Shown piece by piece: positions 5,957 to 50,601 of a stretch of DNA of 64,000 bases. The position numbers and the translations under genes were made by a program. Under the pieces are notes generated by a model. That model worked only from the letters and a program-made list of their open reading frames with translations. It did no database searches and was not told the DNA's origin. Position 1 is the first letter of the stretch, and every line of letters starts with the position of its first letter. Source of the stretch: Bacteroidota bacterium (GTDB lineage: Bacteria; Bacteroidota; Bacteroidia; Bacteroidales; JAAUTT01); assembly GCA_021779665.1 (NCBI GenBank), contig JAJYAG010000001.1, positions 67,396-131,395 on the forward strand. Reading direction: 5' to 3'.

Positions 5957-7384
5957 ATGGATATAGTTAATACGGAGTACAAATTTTTGAGGACTGTTGC
6001 CGGGATTTTCTCAATCAATTATAAACTTGAGGAATCGTGGCTCATAACAGGCCCATGGCGGGAAGCTCATGAAAAACTTGTTGCGCTGCTGCGAAACACT
6101 GCTATTCTTACTCCCTATAATCTTCACGAAGCCGGCATTCCACAGTTTAACTTTCCTTTTCGGACTGCTTATGTTTCGTACCAGGAAAACATTGCTGATA
6201 AGCATGCAACTTATTACCAGCAACGCTTTTATGCTACTGAAGTTGACGAAATAAAGACGTTAAAAAAATATCTGTTTGGAGAAGATGCTGATTTCAGGTC
6301 GGTTCATAAGTATTACGATTTGTTGGACTCCTTTAAATTAAGGCACTTACTCAACGAGGAGGTTGTTAAACTCTCGAACGGCGAAACAAGGAAGGCCGCT
6401 ATTCTTAAAGCTTTGCTGACCAATCGCCAGGTGCTGATTCTGGATGAACCGTTTGCCGGTATCGACCAACAAACGGTTCCAGAACTTAATTTATTGCTGC
6501 AACAATTATCATGTAACGGATTGAATATAATCCTGATAAGCAATAGCTTTCTACCCGAATGGATTTCGCAAGTTTTGCTGATAAACACTCCCGACGAAAT
6601 CAAAAAACTCCCACCGGCGGAATATAGAAAAATACTTTTGATGAAAAATGATGCTAATAGCATTGTTTCCCAATTGCATGTCCCTGCCGTTGCTGCTTTT
6701 GAGGGTGAAAACATCGTGCAGCTTAATAATGTTTCAGTGAGTTACGCCGATAAGCATGTGCTCATGAATATTAACTGGTGCATCAAACCAGGCCAGAAAT
6801 GGTTATTGAAAGGTATTAACGGCGCCGGAAAATCTACTTTACTGAGTTTAATTTATGCCGATCATCCCCAGTCGTACGCCAACGATATTGGGCTGTTTGG
6901 AAGGAAAAGAGGTTCCGGGGAGTCTATCTGGGATATAAAGGAGAAGATAGCATACTACTCCCCTGAAATGTATTATTATTTCGATAAGTCGGTTTCCTGC
7001 AGGGAGGCTATTTTGAGTGGTATTTATTTTCATCCTTTTAAAAAAGGAGTCAGAAATTTGGAACTGGAGAAGTTTGCCGAAAAACTTTTTCTATTGTTCT
7101 TCAGTGAAGATAAACTGGCTCTGCCTCTTAACCGGTTATCGGGTGTTCATCAGCGGCTGATATTGTTTTTACGAACGCTGGCCCAAAACGCTCCTTTGGT
7201 GCTTCTCGACGAACCTTTCCAGGGTTTTGATGCTGAACTGACCGAAAAGTGCAAACAACTAACCGAGTGTTGCTGCCAGGATAAAACCCTAATATTTGTC
7301 AGCCACAATGCTACAGATATGCCTAAGTTTATTACCAGGATTTTTCAATTATATAATGGAAAAGGTTTAGAAGATAAATTTTAG
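5957..7384 (+). CDS. Tandem-domain ABC ATPase without a membrane domain (ModF-like); the N-terminal Walker A is degenerate
   Basis: 475 aa. The second half has Walker A GINGAGKST, signature LSGVHQR and Walker B LVLLDEP. The first half keeps LSNGETRK and VLILDEP, but the Walker A position reads ITGPWREAHEKL. Confidence 0.8.
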   Translation: MDIVNTEYKFLRTVAGIFSINYKLEESWLITGPWREAHEKLVALLRNTAILTPYNLHEAGIPQFNFPFRTAYVSYQENIADKHATYYQQRFYATEVDEIKTLKKYLFGEDADFRSVHKYYDLLDSFKLRHLLNEEVVKLSNGETRKAAILKALLTNRQVLILDEPFAGIDQQTVPELNLLLQQLSCNGLNIILISNSFLPEWISQVLLINTPDEIKKLPPAEYRKILLMKNDANSIVSQLHVPAVAAFEGENIVQLNNVSVSYADKHVLMNINWCIKPGQKWLLKGINGAGKSTLLSLIYADHPQSYANDIGLFGRKRGSGESIWDIKEKIAYYSPEMYYYFDKSVSCREAILSGIYFHPFKKGVRNLELEKFAEKLFLLFFSEDKLALPLNRLSGVHQRLILFLRTLAQNAPLVLLDEPFQGFDAELTEKCKQLTECCCQDKTLIFVSHNATDMPKFITRIFQLYNGKGLEDKF

Positions 7385-7417
7385 TTAACAGGATATAAGA
7401 ATTTGGTTTATAATTGA

Positions 7418-7702
7418 CTACAGAATAACTTTATTGGATTCCTGTAAAATTAAAGGTTCTACCCAGATAATTTTATCGTCCTTTTCCGATTCGTATTTCC
7501 GAAAAATGAAATTCTCGGTTTTAGCGATTGAAAGATCATCATTCAATAAATCGAACTTTGCCTTTTTGAACTCATCCAGAATTTTCTTCTCAACGGCCGT
7601 ATCTATCCTGGGATTTATATCAAGATCCACTCTTTCAGATTTATTCTCGAGGGCTATAAACAATCCCCTTTCGCAATCTTCGAAACATGCATGTACTTCC
7701 AT
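7418..7702 (-). CDS. Hypothetical acidic protein (94 aa)
   Basis: The ORF starts 11 nt after the stop of the small upstream ORF 7714..7878 on the same strand. No recognisable motifs. Confidence 0.45.
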   Translation of the reverse strand: MEVHACFEDCERGLFIALENKSERVDLDINPRIDTAVEKKILDEFKKAKFDLLNDDLSIAKTENFIFRKYESEKDDKIIWVEPLILQESNKVIL

Positions 7703-7713
7703 ACTTCAAAATT

Positions 7714-7878
7714 TTAATTAACGGGAATATTATCCTTAAACTCCCAGTAAACCTGGTTTCCTTTATAATCGGGGACTACGCTTCCTTCTTTAAAAACAAA
7801 GGTAATGGACGGGCAATCCTGAACTTCCCATATTCCTGTAGCCGGACATCTTTCTCCTGTTTTAACTTTCATACTCAT
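7714..7878 (-). CDS. Small protein (54 aa), YjzC-like pattern
   Basis: Below the ORF-track cut-off; translated by hand as MSMKVKTGERCPATGIWEVQDCPSITFVFKEGSVVPDYKGNQVYWEFKDNIPVN. ATG at 7878-7876, TAA at 7716-7714. The pattern G-x3-P-x2-G-x-W ... KEG-x2-VP ... W recalls YjzC-family proteins (from memory). Confidence 0.45.
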   Translation of the reverse strand: MSMKVKTGERCPATGIWEVQDCPSITFVFKEGSVVPDYKGNQVYWEFKDNIPVN

Positions 7879-8201
7879 AGCATTTAAGTTTTGCTTTTGT
7901 TGGCAAATTGTATTCCTTTTTTACCCTTCATATTGATTAGCCATTTTAATCTCCTTTCTTCCAAAAACTTCAGTTTGTAAAAGAAAATCTATATAAACTT
8001 AGATGGTTCACAGAAAACACTTATCTGTGGAAAATTCTCTACGGATCGGATTTTTAATTCATTTTTTTCTTTTTTAAATGGGGGTATTCGCACGGCTAAG
8101 TATTTGATTCATTATATAATATATATTTATCAAGAAAAACCTGAAATTGGTTGGTATGTTGTCTTAAAAACAACTTTGCATTAGTAGGAACTTAAAAAAT
8201 T

Positions 8202-8549
8202 ATGCTTATGAGTCACGAAAATTATCAAAGTTGTATTGACGCATGTCAGGAATGTGCTGTTGAATGTCTTCATTGTGCAAATGCCTGTTTGCAGGAAGAT
8301 AATGTAAAAATGATGGCCCAATGCATTAAGCTGGACCAGGAATGTGCGCGGATTTGTAATCTTGCTGCCGATTTTATGGCCAGCGGAAGTGAATTTGTAA
8401 ATGAAGTTTGTATGGTGTGCGCAAATATTTGTGATGCCTGTGCCCAGGAATGCCGCAGTCACTCAGGTATGGAACATTGCCAGAGCTGCGCGGAAGCCTG
8501 CAGCATGTGCGCTGAAGAGTGCCGTAAAATGGTCCATCAGTTTGCATAA
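8202..8549 (+). CDS. Cysteine-rich four-helix-bundle copper-binding protein (DUF326 / Csp3-like)
   Basis: 115 aa with 19 Cys in CxxxCxxC / CxxC spacing along predicted helices (CIDACQECAVECLHCANAC ... CMVCANICDACAQEC ... CQSCAEACSMCAEEC). No signal peptide. Confidence 0.8.
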   Translation: MLMSHENYQSCIDACQECAVECLHCANACLQEDNVKMMAQCIKLDQECARICNLAADFMASGSEFVNEVCMVCANICDACAQECRSHSGMEHCQSCAEACSMCAEECRKMVHQFA

Positions 8550-8614
8550 GAAACTAAAGTCCTTGTCTTCCTTTTCGTTAAGAGAAATAACTGATAAGGA
8601 AGACAAGGCAATGA

Positions 8615-9727
8615 TTATATTGTAAAAAAGGAAGTATACTCTACGAGTTTTTCACTATGCTCGTCTACATTATGCGCAGTATTGGCCAGTTCTTCGGATG
8701 ATGTAGCACTCATTTGCGATGAATTGTTGAGCTGCTGGATAGAAAGGTTAATCTGCGAAGCCCCGGCATTTTGCTCAATGGAAGCCATGCTAATCTCATT
8801 TATCAGCGATCCGGCTCTTTGAATACGGGGAACAATTTCACCGATAATCTGGTTTGTTTCACCTGTTATCGACAAACTCCGGCGGGAAAGATCCTGAATT
8901 TCCTCCGAAGCTATTTTACTTTTCTCGGCCAAGCGACGTACTTCGGTTGCAACCACGGCAAATCCTTTCCCGTGATCGCCGGCCCTGGCAGCTTCAACGG
9001 CTGCATTTAGTGCCAGAATATTGGTCTGGAATGCAATATCGTTGATGATACTTATCTTTTCGGCTATGTTATTTACGGCAGCAAGACTTTCTTGCGATTT
9101 TAAGAGGATCGCTTTAATCTGATCGCCAATGATCTTCGATTCGTTTTCAGTTTCTTTTGCATTATTTGCATTTTGCTGAATACTGGAAGCAATCTCTTCC
9201 ATAGAAGCCGATATCTCCTGGATGGCAGCAGCCTGGTTAGCAATAATTTGCGATAACTGCTGAGAGTTGTCGTTTATCTCTTTACCTGCGCCCTTCAGGT
9301 CATTGGAAACTATAACAATATTTCCGATAGCGCCTTTCATCTTATCCGAAAGGTTCTTTACAGCATTCGAAATTCTTCCGAATTCATTATTTTCCTTTAG
9401 TTCCTTTTCGTTTATTTCAACAGTTAGATCGCCCTGCGAAATCAAATCGAGCTTTTCCGAAATTTTTTGTAATGGATTTTTAATAATTCTCAGCATAATA
9501 AAAAATGCTGCGAATATGCCTGCCCAGCAAAACGGTAATCCCCACCAGATATGGTGAAGACCTTTTGCTCCCAGGATAAAAGTCACCAGCGGCATTGTTT
9601 CGAAAATAATCAGCATTACCATTCCGATTTTGAATATTATCGTTTTCTTAAACAATAATTTCATCGAAAACCAATAGATAGGAATAAGTGCGAGGAGAAC
9701 CAATTCAAAAATTAAAGTACTGTCCAT
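8615..9727 (-). CDS. Methyl-accepting chemotaxis protein (membrane-embedded N-terminus, HAMP, MCP signalling domain)
   Basis: 370 aa. Hydrophobic N-terminus with no sizeable periplasmic domain, and a HAMP-like [22 protein letters not shown]. The conserved hairpin-tip block [37 protein letters not shown] is present. Confidence 0.85.
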
Positions 9728-42800: not shown

Positions 42801-45800
42801 TTAACCACCTCTCCATCAATCCAATATTTCATCTCATTTGTATAATAAAGGTAAGTACAACTTGCGGGGGCCTGGTAAGTTCCGGCGATTTCGGATCGTA
42901 AGTCGAGCTTTATTTCTTTCTCTTCGCCTGGTGCCATTTCTCTGTAATACAGCACTAAAAGATTCTTATTCACTTCATAGAAATCTACTTTGCCTTTTTC
43001 CTGAATCTCTTTTAACTGCCAGGGCTGCAGACTTAATCCTGAGGGTATTCCGATGATTGCCATTGTCATAGGCAATCCATCATTGGTGATATTCCGAAGT
43101 TTAATGTTCATACGTACCGTTTCTCCAACCCTTGTATTATGAGTGGAAAGGGCTGTTTCTAAAAGTAACTTGCTATCAGGATGCGATGCCGGGGTGCTGC
43201 TGTTCCATGATGCATCGAACGAAAAGGGCATTGAAGCCTGTGTGCCTGAAAACCTGATTAGGACTTTATTGGTACCTTCCTGAAGATATTTTTCAAATCG
43301 TGCAAGAACAATCTTCCCCTTGTCACCCTTCCTGAAACTTTGTGAACCGGCATTGCTGCCATTGATAATAAGGCTGATTTCTCCATCGCTGTTAACCTGG
43401 GCCGACTGGAGTGAATAAGCCGTAAGGGCCTTTAAGGCAAGAATGGTGGCCTGTGTTGATCCAAAACCTCCATAAGAGCGGGAAGAAATAATAAAATTGA
43501 CTGATTTTTCAAGCTCACTCCAGCTATACAGGGTGGTTTTTAACGCTGCCATGATATACAAGGATGCTGTTTCAACCTGTAACGATTTTCCATAAGAATG
43601 AGTAAACGAAGGTTGAATAGTTAACTGATCCCAACTTTTGTTATCTATCTTTTTTTGAATCATTTCCAGCATCTTACTTCCATCATTGGTTTTCTTATAA
43701 TTAAAGGCTGCATTCGCCATCAAAGCCAGGCGGTAAGGATCCTCGCTCTTTAAAGCTTCCTGCTTTGCCAGTTCATATTCAGTATCAATTTTATCAATTC
43801 CGGCTTCCGATAAAGCATAAACCACATAGGCATTGGTAACCTGGTCGCTTGTGCCGCCAAAGCTATATTTCTGATAGTTATCGCCTTTGAAGTTGCCTTT
43901 CCCATCGCGGTGTTTCAGAATCCATTTCAGGGTTCTGTCCATCATCGCCTGGTCAACGTCATCGTAAACAGCTTTCATATCGGTAAATTCCATAAATCCA
44001 TAGGCAGTGAGGCCTAAATGTCCGGGCGCATGACCAAACCATTCAAAACCATTCTGGGAGGTTTCAAAGCTTTTTAAACGGTCATACCCTGTTTTGATAA
44101 GTTTGAGTGCCCTTTGCGAAACCATTGCCGTATCCATGCCTCTGGATTTCAGGTATTGTAAAACCATGATGTTTGGATAAGTGCTCGACGAAGTCTGTTC
44201 AAAACAACCATAAGGTTCCCTCAGAATCGATTCAATACCCGATAATAGATCGCTCAGAATGTCAGGATAAGCTGAAAACTGGGCTTTTAAGGAACCCGGA
44301 ATGGCCTTGCTGATTGTAAATGTGAAGTTCTTTTCCGTCTCCTTTGCCGACACCGAAAAAGATGCAGGAAAACCTTTGGGCTGGATATCAACCTCCTGAT
44401 TAAATGCATCGCTGTTTGTACCACCGTCGAAATTAATCCCAAGTTTTACTTTACCGGCCATATTTCTGACAAAGAATGGAACGGATAAATTACGGTCGGA
44501 AAATGGAGCTATTTCAACTGAGTCGGGTAAAATAGTCAAGGGATTAAGATTCTCAGGAACATAGTATTGCAACTTTCCTGTTAATGTTTTGGATGTATTA
44601 TTTTTAAGAATCAGAGGCATCACAACTGTATCGCCAAAGGAAACATAAGCAGGAAACTTCACAGCCATACTGAATGGCAGCTGGGTATAGAATTTCTTTT
44701 CGGTACGACCCACATCGCCTGTGTTTCCAATACCTTCGGCTACAGCCCTGAAGGTTGTAATTTCGTCGGATGTATAAAATTCCACTTCGGCACTACCGGC
44801 GTTATTGGTACTGATGTTGGGATTCCAGTAAATCGTCGATCTGAAATCGGTCCGTTCCTTAGGTGTTTCATTCTCTTTATAAACCGGATAATAAAACTCT
44901 TTGATGCCAGACAGCCTTCTAGGCGAAATGAGTAAGCCGGAATATCGTGGTTTGAAGCTTTTCTTTAACTGCTTGTAATACCCATTATTGGCCGAAGTTG
45001 TAATCAATATTACCCCATTTGCTGCTCTGCAACCGTAAATTGAAGTAGCGCTCGCATCTTTTAATACCGAAATGCTTGCGATATTCGACACGGGAATGTT
45101 ATGGAGGATTGATTTACTATCGGACAAGGAAGGATCGTAGACAACGCCGTCAACCACATACAAAGGTTCATTCACTGATAAAGCGTTTGTCCCCCGGATA
45201 GTAACCTGCGGCGATACACCTGGCTGACCCTGATCGTTGATAACATTTAACCCGGCAACACGTCCCTGTAATGCCTGGTTAACCATACCCGGCAAGGTTT
45301 GAATATTGCTTGCAGTTACTTTGGTAACTGAGCCTGTAAGATCGGCTTTTCTTTGTGTTCCGTAACCGATTACTACAATCTCGTCGAGGCTTTTCACATC
45401 TTCATCAAGTATCATGTCAGGCCCTTTGCCCATTTCGACTGTTTCGGTAACATAGGATGTAACTGATCTTTTTTTGCTGATTTCCCCGGTCTTTACCTTC
45501 ACAATTTCGGGCATCAGCGATTCTCCGCTTATTGAGGAGCCCAAGCCTGTGCCAGCCAATTCATTCAGATAATCAATTTCTATGTAAATATCAGATATAT
45601 CAATTTCGCTGCTCCGGGCCAACACCTGAATATGTGATGATGCATCAGCATTTTCGAACCTGAAACGACCCAGTTCAGTTGTGCTAACTTTTAAAATTCT
45701 TTTGCGGTTTTCCAATTCAATTACAACAACTTCCGCTTTTACAGGCTTTCCATCTCTTTTATCCTTAACAGTGCCACTAATACAGCCAATTCTTTCGGCG

Positions 45801-47443
45801 GGATAAAGTACATTGTAATTCATTTTCAGGACCTCATTCCAGTAATATCTGCGCCAACCCTGGGTTAATAAAAGGTAATTGAGGGCCTTTTCAGCTTTTG
45901 GTTCTTCAGGGTTGAAATAAAACTCAGGTTTCTCAACTTTCCCTTTGATTTCGGAGCCCAGCAACATCCACGATAGAATATTATGCTGCTTGTCATCGGC
46001 CATGGTCATAAGCTGATCTTTCACAACAGCCAGCGAAAGATTTGCAGCTACCGGAATACTGTCCTTATCGGTTGTACGAATGCTCAGCTTTACCTTCTGG
46101 CGCGGGTTATATTTTTCCTTATCGAACCTTAGAGATATGTTTAAACGCTTATTATAATTGAAGAACATCAGCCGCTCGCAACGAGGATTCCCCTGTCGGT
46201 CGAACAAAGTTGCAATAGCAGTACCAGTAGGAAATTTATCGGCCGAAAATTCTATTTCGTTGCTATTTCCGCCTGCATTTTCGGAATAAGTGAAATAAGT
46301 TCCGTTAGCTGACTGAACCGCAAAATGAACCCTTTCGCCCTGAGGCGCATGATATATAGCTTTATACCTGTTTTCGCCGGCAGGAACCACTCTTAGCGTG
46401 TACCCCCTGGGCATTACTTCGGGCAATTCGAACCTTTCTTTGATTTGAGGTTTCGTAATTACAGCAAAGTAATGCTTTCCGGGAACAGGAAACATTTCGA
46501 AAGCTCCCATTCCCTGGTGAAAGCTGCTGAATTCAAGAATTCTGTTATTGGTATTGTCGGTAATATATCCTTCTACTTCAGCAGGTTTACCAAATTCGTT
46601 TACAGCTTTAAATGCAATATTACCCGGAATATTAGCCACAAGGTATCCTCCTTCCGGAAAGAATTCAATATTGATTTTATTCAAAACAATGGGTATAGAG
46701 CGGGAAACAGCCTCTGTACTGCCTTCGTGCAATATTTTGGCATTGATAAGTCCGTCGCTGCTTTTCAGCGTTTCGGGGAGGATATACTGCAGCATCACTT
46801 TACCTTTATTATCGGTCTGAAGGTCAACCGTTTTTACCTTTTCCCCGGCAAGTGATATATCTGCTTTTACGTTTTTGAAAGTTAAAGGAACATTTTCGAG
46901 TGTTTCAACTTTCAGCTCAGCCTTCACAGTATCGCCCGGGGAATAGCTTTCTCTTTTAAAATCAATCTTTGCCAGCAACCGTGGATAAACCACTTTCTGA
47001 ATCTGAATTTCCTTTTCGAAGTAATAATCCACCCCAAAATTTTTCATCCAGGTGGTGTAAGCCTTTATTTTGTAGAGTCCGCCTGCATAAGAATCGTCGA
47101 TGGTGAAGCTGCCGGAACAAACTCCCTGAATCACCTGAAGTGTCAACGATTTATCAACATTGCTGCGGGGATTGATAAGCTCGATATAAACAACATCCGA
47201 TTGTCGGGATGGGAGATTGGTAGCTCCATCAGTCACAAAAGCCTTGAACCAGATATCTTCTCCGGGCTTGTACAGCGATTTATCTACATGCAGATACACC
47301 TTTTCAAAAGGCTTGTTTTTATAAAAGGAGCTCACAAAGTTCTTCAGAGCAGCAATAAAAGGATCTTCCGACTGGCTGAAATAAACAAAGCCAGAACAAA
47401 TAAGGGTTAATATCAAGGCTGTGGTTATAATTTTTGTTTTCAT
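42788..47443 (-). CDS. Alpha-2-macroglobulin-family thioester protein with an internal CarboxypepD_reg + TonB-dependent-receptor Plug cassette
   Basis: 1551 aa with a signal peptide (possible lipobox LTLIC). MG-type N-terminal domains (YLHVDKSLYKPGEDIWFKAFV; LLLTQGWRRYYW). Residues ~555-625 are CarboxypepD_reg-like (ISGTVKDKRDGKPVKAEVVVIE...GRFRFEN). Residues ~686-816 are SusC-type Plug motifs (LDEIVVIGYGTQRKADLTGSV, VTIRGTNAL, PLYVVDGVVYD, ISVLKDASATSIYGCRAANGVILITT). Then come an A2M block (FRSTIYWNPNISTNNAGSAEVEFYTSDEITTFRAVAEG), the thioester EPYGCFEQT (Cys1080) and a receptor-binding-type C-terminal domain. Confidence 0.85.
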   Translation of the reverse strand: MKTKIITTALILTLICSGFVYFSQSEDPFIAALKNFVSSFYKNKPFEKVYLHVDKSLYKPGEDIWFKAFVTDGATNLPSRQSDVVYIELINPRSNVDKSLTLQVIQGVCSGSFTIDDSYAGGLYKIKAYTTWMKNFGVDYYFEKEIQIQKVVYPRLLAKIDFKRESYSPGDTVKAELKVETLENVPLTFKNVKADISLAGEKVKTVDLQTDNKGKVMLQYILPETLKSSDGLINAKILHEGSTEAVSRSIPIVLNKINIEFFPEGGYLVANIPGNIAFKAVNEFGKPAEVEGYITDNTNNRILEFSSFHQGMGAFEMFPVPGKHYFAVITKPQIKERFELPEVMPRGYTLRVVPAGENRYKAIYHAPQGERVHFAVQSANGTYFTYSENAGGNSNEIEFSADKFPTGTAIATLFDRQGNPRCERLMFFNYNKRLNISLRFDKEKYNPRQKVKLSIRTTDKDSIPVAANLSLAVVKDQLMTMADDKQHNILSWMLLGSEIKGKVEKPEFYFNPEEPKAEKALNYLLLTQGWRRYYWNEVLKMNYNVLYPAERIGCISGTVKDKRDGKPVKAEVVVIELENRKRILKVSTTELGRFRFENADASSHIQVLARSSEIDISDIYIEIDYLNELAGTGLGSSISGESLMPEIVKVKTGEISKKRSVTSYVTETVEMGKGPDMILDEDVKSLDEIVVIGYGTQRKADLTGSVTKVTASNIQTLPGMVNQALQGRVAGLNVINDQGQPGVSPQVTIRGTNALSVNEPLYVVDGVVYDPSLSDSKSILHNIPVSNIASISVLKDASATSIYGCRAANGVILITTSANNGYYKQLKKSFKPRYSGLLISPRRLSGIKEFYYPVYKENETPKERTDFRSTIYWNPNISTNNAGSAEVEFYTSDEITTFRAVAEGIGNTGDVGRTEKKFYTQLPFSMAVKFPAYVSFGDTVVMPLILKNNTSKTLTGKLQYYVPENLNPLTILPDSVEIAPFSDRNLSVPFFVRNMAGKVKLGINFDGGTNSDAFNQEVDIQPKGFPASFSVSAKETEKNFTFTISKAIPGSLKAQFSAYPDILSDLLSGIESILREPYGCFEQTSSSTYPNIMVLQYLKSRGMDTAMVSQRALKLIKTGYDRLKSFETSQNGFEWFGHAPGHLGLTAYGFMEFTDMKAVYDDVDQAMMDRTLKWILKHRDGKGNFKGDNYQKYSFGGTSDQVTNAYVVYALSEAGIDKIDTEYELAKQEALKSEDPYRLALMANAAFNYKKTNDGSKMLEMIQKKIDNKSWDQLTIQPSFTHSYGKSLQVETASLYIMAALKTTLYSWSELEKSVNFIISSRSYGGFGSTQATILALKALTAYSLQSAQVNSDGEISLIINGSNAGSQSFRKGDKGKIVLARFEKYLQEGTNKVLIRFSGTQASMPFSFDASWNSSTPASHPDSKLLLETALSTHNTRVGETVRMNIKLRNITNDGLPMTMAIIGIPSGLSLQPWQLKEIQEKGKVDFYEVNKNLLVLYYREMAPGEEKEIKLDLRSEIAGTYQAPASCTYLYYTNEMKYWIDGEVVKVSR

Positions 47444-47575: not shown

Positions 47576-50449
47576 TTAGAGACTTACCTTTATCGAAATT
47601 CCAACACTACTTACCGCCGGCATATTGAAAAGATCCAGTCCACCAGTATTCGATTTCTTCCAGAGGGTTATATTCGGATCGGAGCCGCTATAGCTGGTAA
47701 TGAGTAACGGATTGCGGATGAAAACCGAGATTTCAGGTTTAAAATCACGCATTCTGTAAAATTTATAACTTACTGATATCTCACGGATCCTGAACCAGGA
47801 GGCATTTTCAACCGCATCTTCTGCAACACCGGTCATGCCGTAGCGATACCAGCGATTCTGCTGCAGGGATCGGGTGGGATTGGCAAAATCAACCGGTGTA
47901 GTATTTACAGTGCCATCCTCCTTTACTCCCGGAAAAATATATTCCAGTACCTTCCGCCCTTCAACAGTCTTTTCCGACAAACCCAGGTACGATAAAACAT
48001 TACCCGTGCCGTTCCAAACCTGTCCCCCGTGCCTGTATTCCATTAAGATACTTGTAGTAAAGCTGCCCAAAAAAATTGTCGGTTCGAAACCTATTGTAAA
48101 ATCGGGTTGAGGATTGGCAATCACTTTCAGGTTATCATCCACAAGCGGATAACCATCTTCTCCGATAATCAATTTCCCATTATCATCTCTTCTCCAGGAA
48201 GTTCCAACCACCACACCTGCAGGATATCCTTTTATCAGCGAGGTATGCACATCGGCATAACCGCCTAAGGGAATCTCACGGTTGTTTCCATAAATATTGG
48301 TAACTACAGATTTATAGCTGTCGAAAATAAAACGAAACTGAGAGGACCTGTTGTTGTACACGAAGTTCTGGTAGATTAGAATTTCTGCTTCTATTCCGCG
48401 CGTTCTGGTGGACGCCAGATTCTTCACCAGCACTTCCCCATTTTCCAAAACCGGGAACATTGCATTGGTGGTTTTGTGCTCATAAAAATCAATATCGAGC
48501 GAAATCTTATTATTCAAAAAACCAAATTCTCCACCTGCATCTTTCTTTTCAACCTTTTCGGGAGTAAGACCCAGGTTGGGAATTATTTCGTGCTCAAAAA
48601 GGGTATTGTAAAAATCGGATGAGCGGATGTTCTGAAAGTTATATTTACCAAAAGAACTGTTCATGGCTGCAAAAGAATAATTATATCCCCAGTTGGCTTT
48701 CAGCTTTATTCGTTCAACAAAGCCATGTATTCTGAAGATATCATCAATATTGAAGCCCAATGCATATGTCGGAGCATAAAGCATTTTGTTTCCGTGATAG
48801 TGATTATTTCCACTGAAGTTGTGTGTCATTTTAAGCAATATCCCTTTTCGGAAAGTCAGATTTGAATTCCAGTTTATACTATGTTCTTCGCGGGAAAGAC
48901 TATAGTTTGTTTTTGTAAGTATTTCATCAGACAAAACTTCATCTCTGCGCGCCAATTCTGAATTCACACTGTAATATTCGTACCTTAGCGAAGAGCTTAA
49001 ATCAGCATATCTGAAATATTTGTTCAGGTTAATGCCTGTGGCGGATAAAAAAGACTCCAGCGAACCATTACGGAAAGTATTTGCTGTTTCGTCCATGCCA
49101 ACAGGCACAGATAAAAACCCGGTGTAAACTTTATTTTTTTGGTTTTGATATCTGAAGTCGGTAAAAACTGAAAACTGGCCGGACAGTTTGTATTCAAGAT
49201 TTAACACGCTGTTGATGGATTGCTGGTTCTCCTTATCCTGCATATTATGAAGCAACCAGTAAGGGTGGTTAACTTTACCCGCTGCATAGCTCCTTTGTGT
49301 CCCATTCTCCAGCTGATATGTTTCGGAGGAGTTATATGCATCTCTGGCTTTTTTACCTCCGGTTATATCAAAACTAGGTGGTGATGTTAATATGGAAGCT
49401 ATTACCAGGGTGCTGTTAGGAGAACCGTCGAGGTAGTTGCTTTTTAAATTATCGATGGTAAGTTGTCCTCCAATTTTGAACCTGCCATATACGCGCTTTA
49501 ATTTCAAATCGACAATATTCCCATTACTTTTTTGTCCGGCTAAGATACCCTTGTTTAACTGGTTGCTGAGCGCTATCGAATATTCTTTGCGCTCCGTTTT
49601 AAGAAAAATTTTCAGACTGTTGATATAAGTAAAGCCATTGCAAAATGCTTTTGACGGATCGTAACTCCGGGCCGGATTTCCGTTTCCGGTATTTTTGGGT
49701 ACCAGGCGGCCGTTGGAATCATAATCCCAGCTACTTCCATCAAATTCGAAGTTTTGAAGATTGGGTCCCCAGCTTAGTATTTCGCCGGTTTCGGGCGATT
49801 GCCACTGCGAGGTTCCATTAACCGGCCTTCCCTGTGCAAAACTGCTCTGTAATTTTGGCAACCGGGTATGGTGTTCTGTTGAAACCGAGGTAAAATAAGA
49901 AACATGCGGAATCCGGATGTATTCATCCCTGACCATATTGATCCGTGCCAGATCTTTGCCAAAATCGATACTTCCAATCTTGTTAACTACCATGTCATGG
50001 TCGTGCAACCAGTTATAATCAGGATTTATTACAGAAAAGGAAGGCGTTGAGGAGGTAAACACTGCTCTTCCTTCTTCAGCAGGTAATGTGTCAGTATATT
50101 CCGGGTAAGAAACCGGTACATAACTTCTCTCAGGCTGTGGTTCACCGGAAGTTATGTTCTGACTTTGCCCCCCGGGTTCTGAGTTTTTAACCGTAACGAG
50201 CATTTCTTTGGTGCTAAAACCTATATAAGAGAATACCAGTGTGGATCCCAAAGGGGCATTAATGCTGTAGGTTCCGTTAATATCGGTTACCACACCGGTG
50301 GTGGTTCCTTTAATATTTATGCTAACTCCTATTAATGGCTCCCCGGAACTATCTTTCATGGTACCTCTAATCAAACGCATTTCCTGCGAAAAGGCCATTC
50401 TTAAAGAAAAAAGGAACAGCAGTGTTAAAATTATTTTATAAGGCTTCAT
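47576..50449 (-). CDS. SusC/RagA-like TonB-dependent outer-membrane barrel lacking a recognisable Plug domain
   Basis: Started at the ATG at 50449 (MKPYKIILTLLFLFSLRMAFSQE); the track's TTG at 50524 is rejected. A CarboxypepD_reg block is present (IRGTMKDSSGEPLIGVSINIKGTTTGVVTDINGTYSINAPLGSTLVFSYIGF). About 90 aa of Pro/Ser/Glu-rich sequence follow, without the plug motifs. Then comes a SusC-type barrel ending ...ITSYSGSDPNI...NMPAVSSVGISIKVSL. No susD-like gene follows. Confidence 0.85.
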   Translation of the reverse strand: MKPYKIILTLLFLFSLRMAFSQEMRLIRGTMKDSSGEPLIGVSINIKGTTTGVVTDINGTYSINAPLGSTLVFSYIGFSTKEMLVTVKNSEPGGQSQNITSGEPQPERSYVPVSYPEYTDTLPAEEGRAVFTSSTPSFSVINPDYNWLHDHDMVVNKIGSIDFGKDLARINMVRDEYIRIPHVSYFTSVSTEHHTRLPKLQSSFAQGRPVNGTSQWQSPETGEILSWGPNLQNFEFDGSSWDYDSNGRLVPKNTGNGNPARSYDPSKAFCNGFTYINSLKIFLKTERKEYSIALSNQLNKGILAGQKSNGNIVDLKLKRVYGRFKIGGQLTIDNLKSNYLDGSPNSTLVIASILTSPPSFDITGGKKARDAYNSSETYQLENGTQRSYAAGKVNHPYWLLHNMQDKENQQSINSVLNLEYKLSGQFSVFTDFRYQNQKNKVYTGFLSVPVGMDETANTFRNGSLESFLSATGINLNKYFRYADLSSSLRYEYYSVNSELARRDEVLSDEILTKTNYSLSREEHSINWNSNLTFRKGILLKMTHNFSGNNHYHGNKMLYAPTYALGFNIDDIFRIHGFVERIKLKANWGYNYSFAAMNSSFGKYNFQNIRSSDFYNTLFEHEIIPNLGLTPEKVEKKDAGGEFGFLNNKISLDIDFYEHKTTNAMFPVLENGEVLVKNLASTRTRGIEAEILIYQNFVYNNRSSQFRFIFDSYKSVVTNIYGNNREIPLGGYADVHTSLIKGYPAGVVVGTSWRRDDNGKLIIGEDGYPLVDDNLKVIANPQPDFTIGFEPTIFLGSFTTSILMEYRHGGQVWNGTGNVLSYLGLSEKTVEGRKVLEYIFPGVKEDGTVNTTPVDFANPTRSLQQNRWYRYGMTGVAEDAVENASWFRIREISVSYKFYRMRDFKPEISVFIRNPLLITSYSGSDPNITLWKKSNTGGLDLFNMPAVSSVGISIKVSL

Positions 50450-50601
50450 GGTTAAAATTTTTGGTTCACACTTAGGATGAAGCTCAAAAATTTGTCCCCT
50501 AAAAAATGAATAAAAAAAGTTCAATTCAGCCGCAAGAAATTGTAACTTTCGTTGTCAAACATTCAATTTACTTCCATAATTAACTTCTAAACTATCTAAA
50601 C

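Follow-up and report, generated by a model that had tools for sequence, protein, structure and literature searches.

A SusC-type transporter plug at the bait-region site of a bacterial alpha-2-macroglobulin-like protein, beside a gene for a plug-less barrel: a possible split transporter in Bacteroidota

We analyzed a 64,000-nucleotide stretch of a Bacteroidota genome (GenBank assembly GCA_021779665.1, contig JAJYAG010000001.1, positions 67,396–131,395 of the forward strand), called the window here and numbered from its first letter. Two adjacent genes on its minus strand are the subject of this report. One encodes a 1551-amino acid (aa) protein related to alpha-2-macroglobulin (A2M), within which sits a cassette resembling part of a SusC-type TonB-dependent transporter: a CarboxypepD_reg domain, a linker and a plug, at window positions 44984–45781, or residues 555–820 of the open reading frame (ORF). 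The other, upstream, encodes a SusC-like beta-barrel protein of 957 aa. A preliminary description of the sequence had recognized the cassette and placed it where canonical A2Ms carry the bait region, and both points stand; it had missed the partner barrel next door, which alters the role of the cassette. The features of both genes are collected in Table 1.

Its fold, the order of its domains and its thioester motif place the 1551-aa protein in the A2M/TEP superfamily. Pfam matched MG2 at residues 48–130 (E 2.4e-15) and A2M (PF00207) at residues 870–958 (E 6.3e-09), with a weak A2M_BRD match at residues 392–474 (E 0.0013). We modeled residues 1–1200 with AlphaFold from a 49-sequence alignment (overall predicted local distance difference test score, pLDDT, 79), and placed the C-terminal 351 residues by Pfam alone. 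In Foldseek searches the model was colinear with CD109, TEP1, human A2M, ECAM (E. coli YfhM) and Salmonella SaA2M over about 1200 columns, with E-values of 2e-40 for CD109 and about 1e-36 for TEP1, human A2M and ECAM. The domain order of the superfamily, a chain of MG domains followed by CUB, the thioester domain (TED) and a C-terminal MG domain, was found by Pfam, AlphaFold and Foldseek, and the model has MG7, CUB and the start of TED from residue 911 with high confidence. The thioester motif is intact, and CxEQ occurs in essentially every related genome locus that spans this region. Statements of invariance, here and below, refer to 111 family members.

Pfam and NCBIfam matches and a predicted beta-sandwich bear out the composition of the cassette. 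CarboxypepD_reg matched residues 555–608 at an E-value of 5e-5, below the curated cutoff, and PF13620 is annotated in several homologs. Plug matched residues 699–811 above the cutoff (E 4e-16), the SusC signature TIGR04057 lies at residues 788–816, also above the cutoff, and residues 666–817 matched positions 56–204 of the SusC/RagA model TIGR04056 (E 2e-53). The best solved structure for the plug part was the SusC homolog 5t3r_D (residues 83–246, E 7e-30), in an alignment that takes in the SusC TonB-box region DEIVVIGYGTQRKADLTG; the TonB box region of the window's protein aligns with DEVVVTGYTTQRK of this homolog. Seven residues of the TonB box and plug are invariant (L686, E688, G731, G751, P760, G804 and G810). 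An assembly or fusion artefact was ruled out by the conservation of the architecture in more than 100 genomes, and a decayed plug by the conservation of the plug sequence.

The segments that flank the plug are less constrained. Conservation was 0.62 for the TonB box and 0.56 for the plug, 0.41 for the post-plug linker (residues 817–845), and 0.25, the lowest of the family, for the pre-plug linker, which is rich in E/D/M/N/P and ranges from 46 to 73 aa in length; residues 818–862 span 37–47 aa across the family. In the model, residues 627–704 are disordered (pLDDT about 28) and residues 821–829 have a pLDDT below 50. The linker sequence quoted in the preliminary description for about residues 625–682 corresponds to these residues exactly. 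Close relatives share the motif L[MIV]PE[IV][IV]K[IV][KQ] within the pre-plug linker (residues ~643–651; window ~45490–45516, minus strand), which could be, from its sequence, a docking strand or a preferred cleavage site.

Alignments and model alike support the placement of the cassette at the bait-region site, inside what looks like a split MG6-type domain. AlphaFold gave, with high confidence, half an MG domain of three strands (residues 435–475), helices (476–539), the cassette and three further strands (870–906). In the superfamily, the bait-region domain, made up of a conserved LNK part and the bait, interrupts MG6 between its strands 4 and 5 (PMC13069473). Residues 476–545 fit LNK, because they are the most conserved region of the family (0.73), as expected for LNK. 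The family profile aligns to TEP1 from residue 603, to ECAM from about residues 939–975, in a local profile–profile alignment that covers MG6b onward only, and to human A2M from residue 724 of structure 6tav, a region which we take to be the C-terminal end of the 39-residue bait. In ECAM, the disordered bait spans R923–L942 and the cleaved stump 956–963 (PMC4498604). Since the alignments to human A2M, TEP1 and ECAM restart directly after the baits, the cassette appears to lie at the bait-region site. The FRSTIYW block begins at F867, 47 aa past residue 820 (about 45 aa in the preliminary description, which had made it the signature of the PF00207-type domain). The alignment starts, the split MG layout and the natural variants described below thus bear out the proposed position, and no separate conventional bait was seen elsewhere in the 1551-aa protein. 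Folded inserts at the MG6 site have a precedent, since complement C3 carries its anaphylatoxin domain at the same insertion site.

The upstream protein is complementary to the cassette. It matched TIGR04056 at positions 211–981, and the pair together tiles this model, with the cassette covering 56–204. Canonical SusCs are tiled in the same way: P0147 end to end, by the cassette at 192–335 and the barrel at 343–1156, and P0149 by the cassette at 91–234 and the barrel at 240–1049. Each protein scored about 182–194 bits against TIGR04056, for which the cutoff is 368, and neither the A2M-like nor the barrel protein is, by its sequence, a SusC transporter on its own. TonB box and plug are found only on the A2M-like protein of the pair; in the 957-aa barrel protein there was no Pfam Plug match and no TonB box. 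The 22-strand SusC-type barrel, identified from TIGR04056 and the fold match rather than from a count of strands, is present in the upstream protein only. The AlphaFold model of the barrel protein (pLDDT 86) has a small low-confidence hairpin between the disordered residues 95–153 and the barrel, and its Foldseek match to SusC BT2264 had an E-value of 2e-44 and a TM-score of 0.67. Full-length homologs of the barrel protein measure 912–986 aa and lack PF07715, whereas canonical SusCs (1050–1220 aa, with Plug) align to it over only about 81%. Among 82 canonical SusCs, similarity to the plug and similarity to the barrel were not significantly correlated in rank (Spearman -0.16); a common origin of the two parts from one ancestral SusC is therefore not supported. 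The two SusCs closest to the barrel do, however, rank second and third in likeness to the plug.

The two genes are in the same reading frame and separated by a gap of 132 nucleotides, in which no minus-strand terminator was found. A scan for sigma-70 promoters, with a consensus ill-suited to Bacteroidota, gave sites no commoner than in shuffled sequence. The ORF of the barrel as called mechanically starts at a TTG (window 50450–50524, minus strand) 25 codons upstream of an ATG (MKPYKIILTLLF...); this ATG, which opens a signal peptide and is used by database protein P0121, is likely the true start.

More than 1400 homologs of about 1540 aa have the MG2-Plug-A2M-TED architecture. We applied hidden Markov models (HMMs) built from the window's proteins to 80 related loci from a genome collection, and cut out the bait-site inserts by HMM-anchored extraction. 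A plug-less barrel gene lies directly upstream on the same strand, ending a few bases from the A2M start, in 29 of the 31 informative loci with a SusC plug; it adjoins none of the 32 loci without one. Paired loci span Bacteroidales, Chryseobacterium/Flavobacterium, Chitinophaga and Roseivirga, and three further loci (L001, L002 and L004) have the barrel and plug-A2M pair. The module is widespread in Bacteroidota, including Chryseobacterium, Flavobacterium, Dysgonomonas and Bacteroides-like metagenome-assembled genomes (MAGs), and its members go in databases by the names "MG2 domain-containing" or "TonB-dependent receptor plug domain-containing protein" only. In L057 and L070, and possibly in L013, the insert is as long as that of the plug type and the plug is degenerate; L057 and L070 have no upstream barrel, which looks, from the sequences, like decay of the plug where its partner is missing.

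Table 1. Features of the A2M-like gene and of the upstream barrel gene in the window
Feature	Residues	Window position	Strand	Evidence or remark
A2M/TEP-like thioester protein gene, bearing the cassette	1551 aa	42788..47443	-	ORF, Pfam and Foldseek
N-terminal hydrophobic signal sequence	1-23	47375..47443	-	no conserved lipobox; helix 2-23 in AlphaFold model
Four complete MG domains	47-148, 157-249, 258-339, 349-428	46160..47305	-	AlphaFold strands, pLDDT ~85-95; Pfam MG2
First half of split MG domain (MG6a-like)	435-475	46019..46141	-	three strands; weak A2M_BRD match
Conserved helical LNK-like segment, includes GWRR motif	476-545	45809..46018	-	helices 476-539
CarboxypepD_reg / SusC NTE-like beta-sandwich	555-623	45575..45781	-	Pfam; AlphaFold pLDDT 80-88
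Disordered hypervariable pre-plug linker, main bait candidate	624-685	45389..45574	-	pLDDT ~28
SusC-type TonB box region LDEIVVIGYGTQ	686-697	45353..45388	-	L686 and E688 invariant
SusC/RagA-type plug domain	698-816	44996..45352	-	Pfam, TIGR04056, TIGR04057, 5t3r_D
Post-plug linker, partly disordered, K/R-rich, second bait candidate	817-845	44909..44995	-	
Conserved [RK]EF..P.Y segment and MG6b-like half, FRSTIYW at 867	846-906	44726..44908	-	strands 870-906; PF00207 start; alignments to human A2M, TEP1 and ECAM begin here
Thioester domain	1057-1343	43415..44275	-	Pfam TED, E 2e-31
Thioester motif GCFEQ	1079-1083	44195..44209	-	invariant in 111 sequences
C-terminal MG / receptor-binding-like domain	1459-1537	42833..43069	-	Pfam A2M_recep, E 4.5e-5
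Terminator-like hairpin ~50 nt past A2M stop codon		42711..42736	-	likely end of two-gene operon
SusC-like barrel protein gene, no plug or TonB box	957 aa	47576..50449	-	start = ATG of database protein P0121
CarboxypepD_reg/NTE domain of the barrel protein	24-84 (from ATG)	50198..50380	-	Pfam CarbopepD_reg_2, E 1e-15; model strands
Disordered segment at canonical plug place	95-153	49991..50167	-	pLDDT below 50; no Plug match
Beta-barrel	~182-957	47579..49906	-	long strands, pLDDT above 90; TM 0.67 to SusC 5fq6

Neighbors of the A2M gene in the window include, besides the SusC-like barrel, a class-V aminotransferase, a DNA alkylation repair protein and a pyrophosphatase; the genes that flank the pair are unrelated housekeeping genes and differ between genomes. 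No SusD-family gene lies beside the pair in the window, L001 or L002. In L004 (GCA_027352335.1, DAIEJK010000100.1), the barrel protein (6007–8874) is 100% identical to that of the window, and the A2M gene was called as two pieces of 902 and 626 aa, the 902-aa N-terminal fragment being 100% identical to the window's intact protein; a frameshift or a misassembly in that record is the probable cause of the split. L015, on a contig labeled "MAG: Limnohabitans sp." (betaproteobacterial), has a Bacteroidota-type barrel and plug-A2M pair and is probably a binning error rather than a case of horizontal transfer.

Among the 80 loci, the only part that varies in length lies between GWRR, at the end of LNK, and F..T.YW of MG6b. 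What it holds differs widely: a disordered Pro/Ala/Met- or charge-rich insert of about 105–145 aa with no domain (Myxococcota and Planctomycetota: L062, L063, L078 and L081); one CarboxypepD_reg domain with an acidic disordered tail (about 190–250 aa; many Chitinophagales-like genomes, e.g., L033); CarboxypepD_reg, linker and SusC plug, the window's type (about 280–320 aa; Bacteroidota); two CarboxypepD_reg domains and a TonB C-terminal domain (374 aa; L003); two to four CarboxypepD_reg domains and a generic Plug (326–560 aa; Saprospiraceae: L014, L072 and L075); or two hydrophobic helix-length segments (243 aa; L084, Planctomycetaceae). Since relatives carry at this place a TonB C-terminal domain, a hydrophobic hairpin, CarboxypepD_reg with an acidic tail, or bare disorder, their sequences suggest that the bait site is in bacteria a cassette site too, which holds an envelope-docking module together with the bait.

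The variants with a TonB C-terminal domain (TonB_C, PF03544) are about 1630 aa long, contain two CarboxypepD_reg domains and an acidic linker, and were found in L003 (8001–12887; P0076), L086 (P0082) and L087 (P0088) and as P0108 and P0120. In the three loci examined they have no adjoining barrel gene and no dedicated neighbor, and such stand-alone variants fit a domain able to bind the TonB box of any transporter. L084 (6–3962) is a single example: residues ~49–104 of its insert contain two hydrophobic segments of about 20–24 aa each, WFADAATLVLGALGFWGLYLLFAALL and AALSGACGLALLFLLVLPWIGG, which look, from sequence, like a transmembrane hairpin and a third way of membrane anchoring at the bait site. 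The Saprospiraceae variants, of 1600–1930 aa (L014, L016, L027, L072, L075, L077, L079 and L080), combine two to four CarboxypepD_reg domains with a Plug that is either generic and non-SusC or partial, and some have a second plug; a plug-less SusC-like barrel was beside none of these eight loci. In L080, a 917-aa ORF ending in a barrel-like motif lies downstream on the opposite strand.

Which segment would serve as bait is a matter of two candidates. The post-plug linker (817–845) matches the ECAM and human A2M baits by a simple offset, extrapolated from a local alignment, and is from its sequence an equally positioned rival. It is plausible, from sequence and model, that the pre-plug linker (624–685) is the better candidate, because it is longer and fully disordered, has the lowest conservation, and lines up with the bare disordered sequence that relatives without a cassette carry.

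The window's protein is not an ECAM-type lipoprotein A2M. ECAM and SaA2M share with it a monomeric periplasmic-type fold, what appears to be a bait region inserted in one MG domain, CUB-TED, a C-terminal MG domain and the CxEQ thioester, and membrane tethering is apparently part of the design in each. ECAM is an inner-membrane lipoprotein whose gene, yfhM, adjoins pbpC (PBP1c) in E. coli, whereas the A2M gene of the window has no pbpC neighbor; lipobox-like Cys residues occur in 6 of the 111 family members, a chance-like number, at no conserved position. The window's protein also has fewer N-terminal MG domains than ECAM and a folded transporter plug at the bait site, and sequence likeness to ECAM is detectable from MG6b onward only. 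At the N-terminus, an [ED]DPF motif is conserved directly after the hydrophobic segment (residues 24–28; window 47360–47374, minus strand), and many family members lack a clear Ala-x-Ala-type cleavage site after this segment. An uncleaved N-terminus might act as a signal anchor, in which case the A2M-like protein might bridge both membranes.

We consider it somewhat better than an even bet that the pair forms a SusC-type TonB-dependent transporter in two pieces, in which the plug comes in trans from the A2M-like protein and docks a periplasmic thioester protease trap beneath the outer membrane, as sequence and models suggest. The upstream protein would give the outer-membrane barrel and its own N-terminal domain, and the A2M-like protein would give the TonB box and plug, in an insertion ordered as MG6a, LNK helices, CarboxypepD_reg, disordered linker, TonB box and plug, short linker and MG6b. 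In transporters, both ends of the plug are on the periplasmic side, and the plug could therefore enter the partner barrel from below. The A2M body of about 150 kDa would stay in the periplasm, docked beneath the outer membrane via the plug. Plug docking would replace the lipid anchor of ECAM; another anchor would be needed because the family, unlike ECAM, has no conserved lipobox. The flexible segments by the plug (624–685 above all, or 817–845) would serve as bait, and a protease that reaches the periplasm and cuts it would set off the usual A2M rearrangement and be captured covalently via the GCFEQ thioester. The TonB_C domain of relatives, which binds the TonB boxes of transporters, and the hydrophobic hairpin, which would insert into a membrane, may likewise point to envelope docking. 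In favor of this reading count the insertion site, the way in which cassette and barrel complete each other, their conserved pairing, the absence of the barrel where the plug is degenerate, and the selection on plug and TonB box that their conservation implies. That cork-less FhuA folds alone, and that its cork and barrel unfold independently (PMC9581862), we count as support for feasibility.

Several points weigh against this scheme. The evidence for a plug–barrel complex consists of sequence and single-chain models, and in the latter the plug (about residues 705–816) is only moderately confident (pLDDT 55–72). Two bait segments, 624–685 and 817–845, compete. The loci counted are related, so that the Fisher p of 6e-16 for barrel pairing in plug versus no-plug loci overstates their independence, and two plug-bearing loci, L075 and L080, which encode Saprospiraceae proteins of about 1900 aa with a double cassette, have no adjacent barrel. 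A barrel folded by BAM would somehow have to gain a plug embedded in a 1551-aa protein, and cleavage of the signal peptide, hence a freely soluble N-terminus, is uncertain. Protease trapping is not known for any A2M-like protein of this clade. SusC-like barrels that lack a plug can act as channels by themselves (bioRxiv 10.1101/2025.11.13.688124). When the bait of ECAM is cut, its C-terminal stump comes free and pushes TED off the C-terminal MG domain (PMC4498604); with the plug in a barrel, by contrast, a pre-plug cut would leave the C-terminal stump held, and activation may therefore need a post-plug cut or release of the plug. The preliminary description had proposed that cleavage in the linker would uncouple the N-terminal MG body from the plug. 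This would be true of the covalent link only: the MG6 halves should hold the chains together, as in other A2M/C3 proteins.

That a pre-plug cut would leave the stump held by the plug makes readings with gating or TonB coupling worth attention. We think it unlikely that the pair is a mechanochemical device coupling an outer-membrane gate to the thioester switch, be it a protease-opened pore or a TonB-fired trap. Its concrete form, a mechanically coupled gate in which the docked plug serves the coupling and not the anchoring, is less likely again; bait cleavage would pull the plug out and open the barrel, or a TonB pull would deform the bait region and fire the thioester without proteolysis. Such a gate would suit the conserved TonB box (L686 and E688 being invariant), the mere 30–45 or so residues that join the plug to MG6b, the control that the bait region exerts over the conformational switch in A2Ms, and the TonB_C variants that also tie the same site to the TonB system. 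However, it is conjecture with no precedent, a 22-strand barrel left open would burden the cell, and relatives with bare disordered inserts show that the scaffold works without a TonB-related module. Either version, if true, would be a natural two-polypeptide TonB-dependent transporter.

A still smaller chance goes to a working importer of nutrients or proteins, with the A2M body as a periplasmic accessory that receives or captures the imported cargo and has no part in protease defense. The pair together does hold every part of a SusC transporter, TonB box included, and the cargoes of SusC/RagA relatives include glycans, peptides and even a ubiquitin-like protein, as titles in the PDB indicate; yet no SusD-like lid, enzyme or regulator is linked to it, the neighbors being variable housekeeping genes, and the A2M body has relatives that carry no transporter part at all. 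We regard as improbable, and a shade more so than import, a reading with no docking at all, in which the barrel works by itself as a plug-less diffusion channel and the plug-like domain is a folded spacer or interaction surface by the bait. Plug-less, lid-less SusC-like transporters do function alone in Bacteroides (bioRxiv 10.1101/2025.11.13.688124), and L075 and L080 show plugs without an adjacent barrel, but this would leave unexplained the pairing of 29 of 31 versus none of 32 loci, the exact tiling of the SusC model, the retention of a TonB box and a SusC signature by a barrel-less protein, and the degeneration of the plug where the barrel is absent. Least probable by our estimate, indeed very improbable, is display of the A2M body on the cell surface with the barrel as translocon or anchor and the linkers threading its lumen. 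At about 60 and 30 aa, the linkers have the length needed to cross a membrane, and the protein has no lipobox or other obvious anchor; against this, both plug ends lie on the periplasmic side, where the TonB box has to meet TonB, folded domains of about 550 and 700 aa flank the plug, no C-terminal domain of the type IX secretion system or LES-type lipoprotein signal was seen, and the TonB_C and hydrophobic-hairpin variants point to the periplasm.

The eukaryotic A2M/TEP proteins (human A2M, A2ML1, CD109, insect TEP1 and C3) are the best sequence and fold matches of the window's protein and share with it the thioester domain and what appears to be a divided MG6, in which a variable insert follows a conserved LNK part. 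Unlike them, it is bacterial, has no MG1-equivalent (its first domain matches Pfam MG2), and has a membrane-transporter module as its insert, where theirs is a bait alone or a signaling domain. With SusC/RagA transporters (BT1763, BT2264 and RagA) the pair shares the NTE-like domain, TonB box, plug and SusC signature of the cassette and the SusC-like barrel of the partner; here, in contrast, plug and barrel are on two polypeptides, no SusD partner is present, and the plug is internal to a 1551-aa protein, both of its ends running into other domains. The "Type S" plug-less SusC-like transporters have, like the window's barrel protein, a barrel and an N-terminal CarboxypepD_reg domain and no Pfam Plug or SusD (bioRxiv 10.1101/2025.11.13.688124). 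They are CAZyme-linked and thought to be open channels for small sugars, whereas the barrel gene of the window is linked to a gene bearing the missing plug. FhuA cork and barrel as separate proteins are, in the same way, autonomous folding units (PMC9581862). The FhuA split was engineered in the laboratory, whereas the one described here appears to be a natural and conserved split, joined to a second machine. Co-expressed FhuA cork and barrel are said to reassemble in vivo, reportedly in work of Braun et al. in J Bacteriol 2003. In literature searches, we found no paper on an A2M with a transporter plug or on a natural split transporter of this kind.

For the biology of A2Ms, bacteria appear to use the bait site generally as a place for cassettes, and in the clade of the window's protein it holds a plug, a TonB C-terminal domain or a hydrophobic hairpin beside a disordered bait. 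This offers a testable answer to the question of how bacterial A2Ms that are not lipoproteins are positioned in the envelope. For the biology of the outer membrane, the pair would, if our preferred reading is true, be a natural and conserved TonB-dependent transporter split into a plug protein and a barrel protein, and plug insertion in trans, plug extraction by TonB and barrel assembly would be open to study in a native system.

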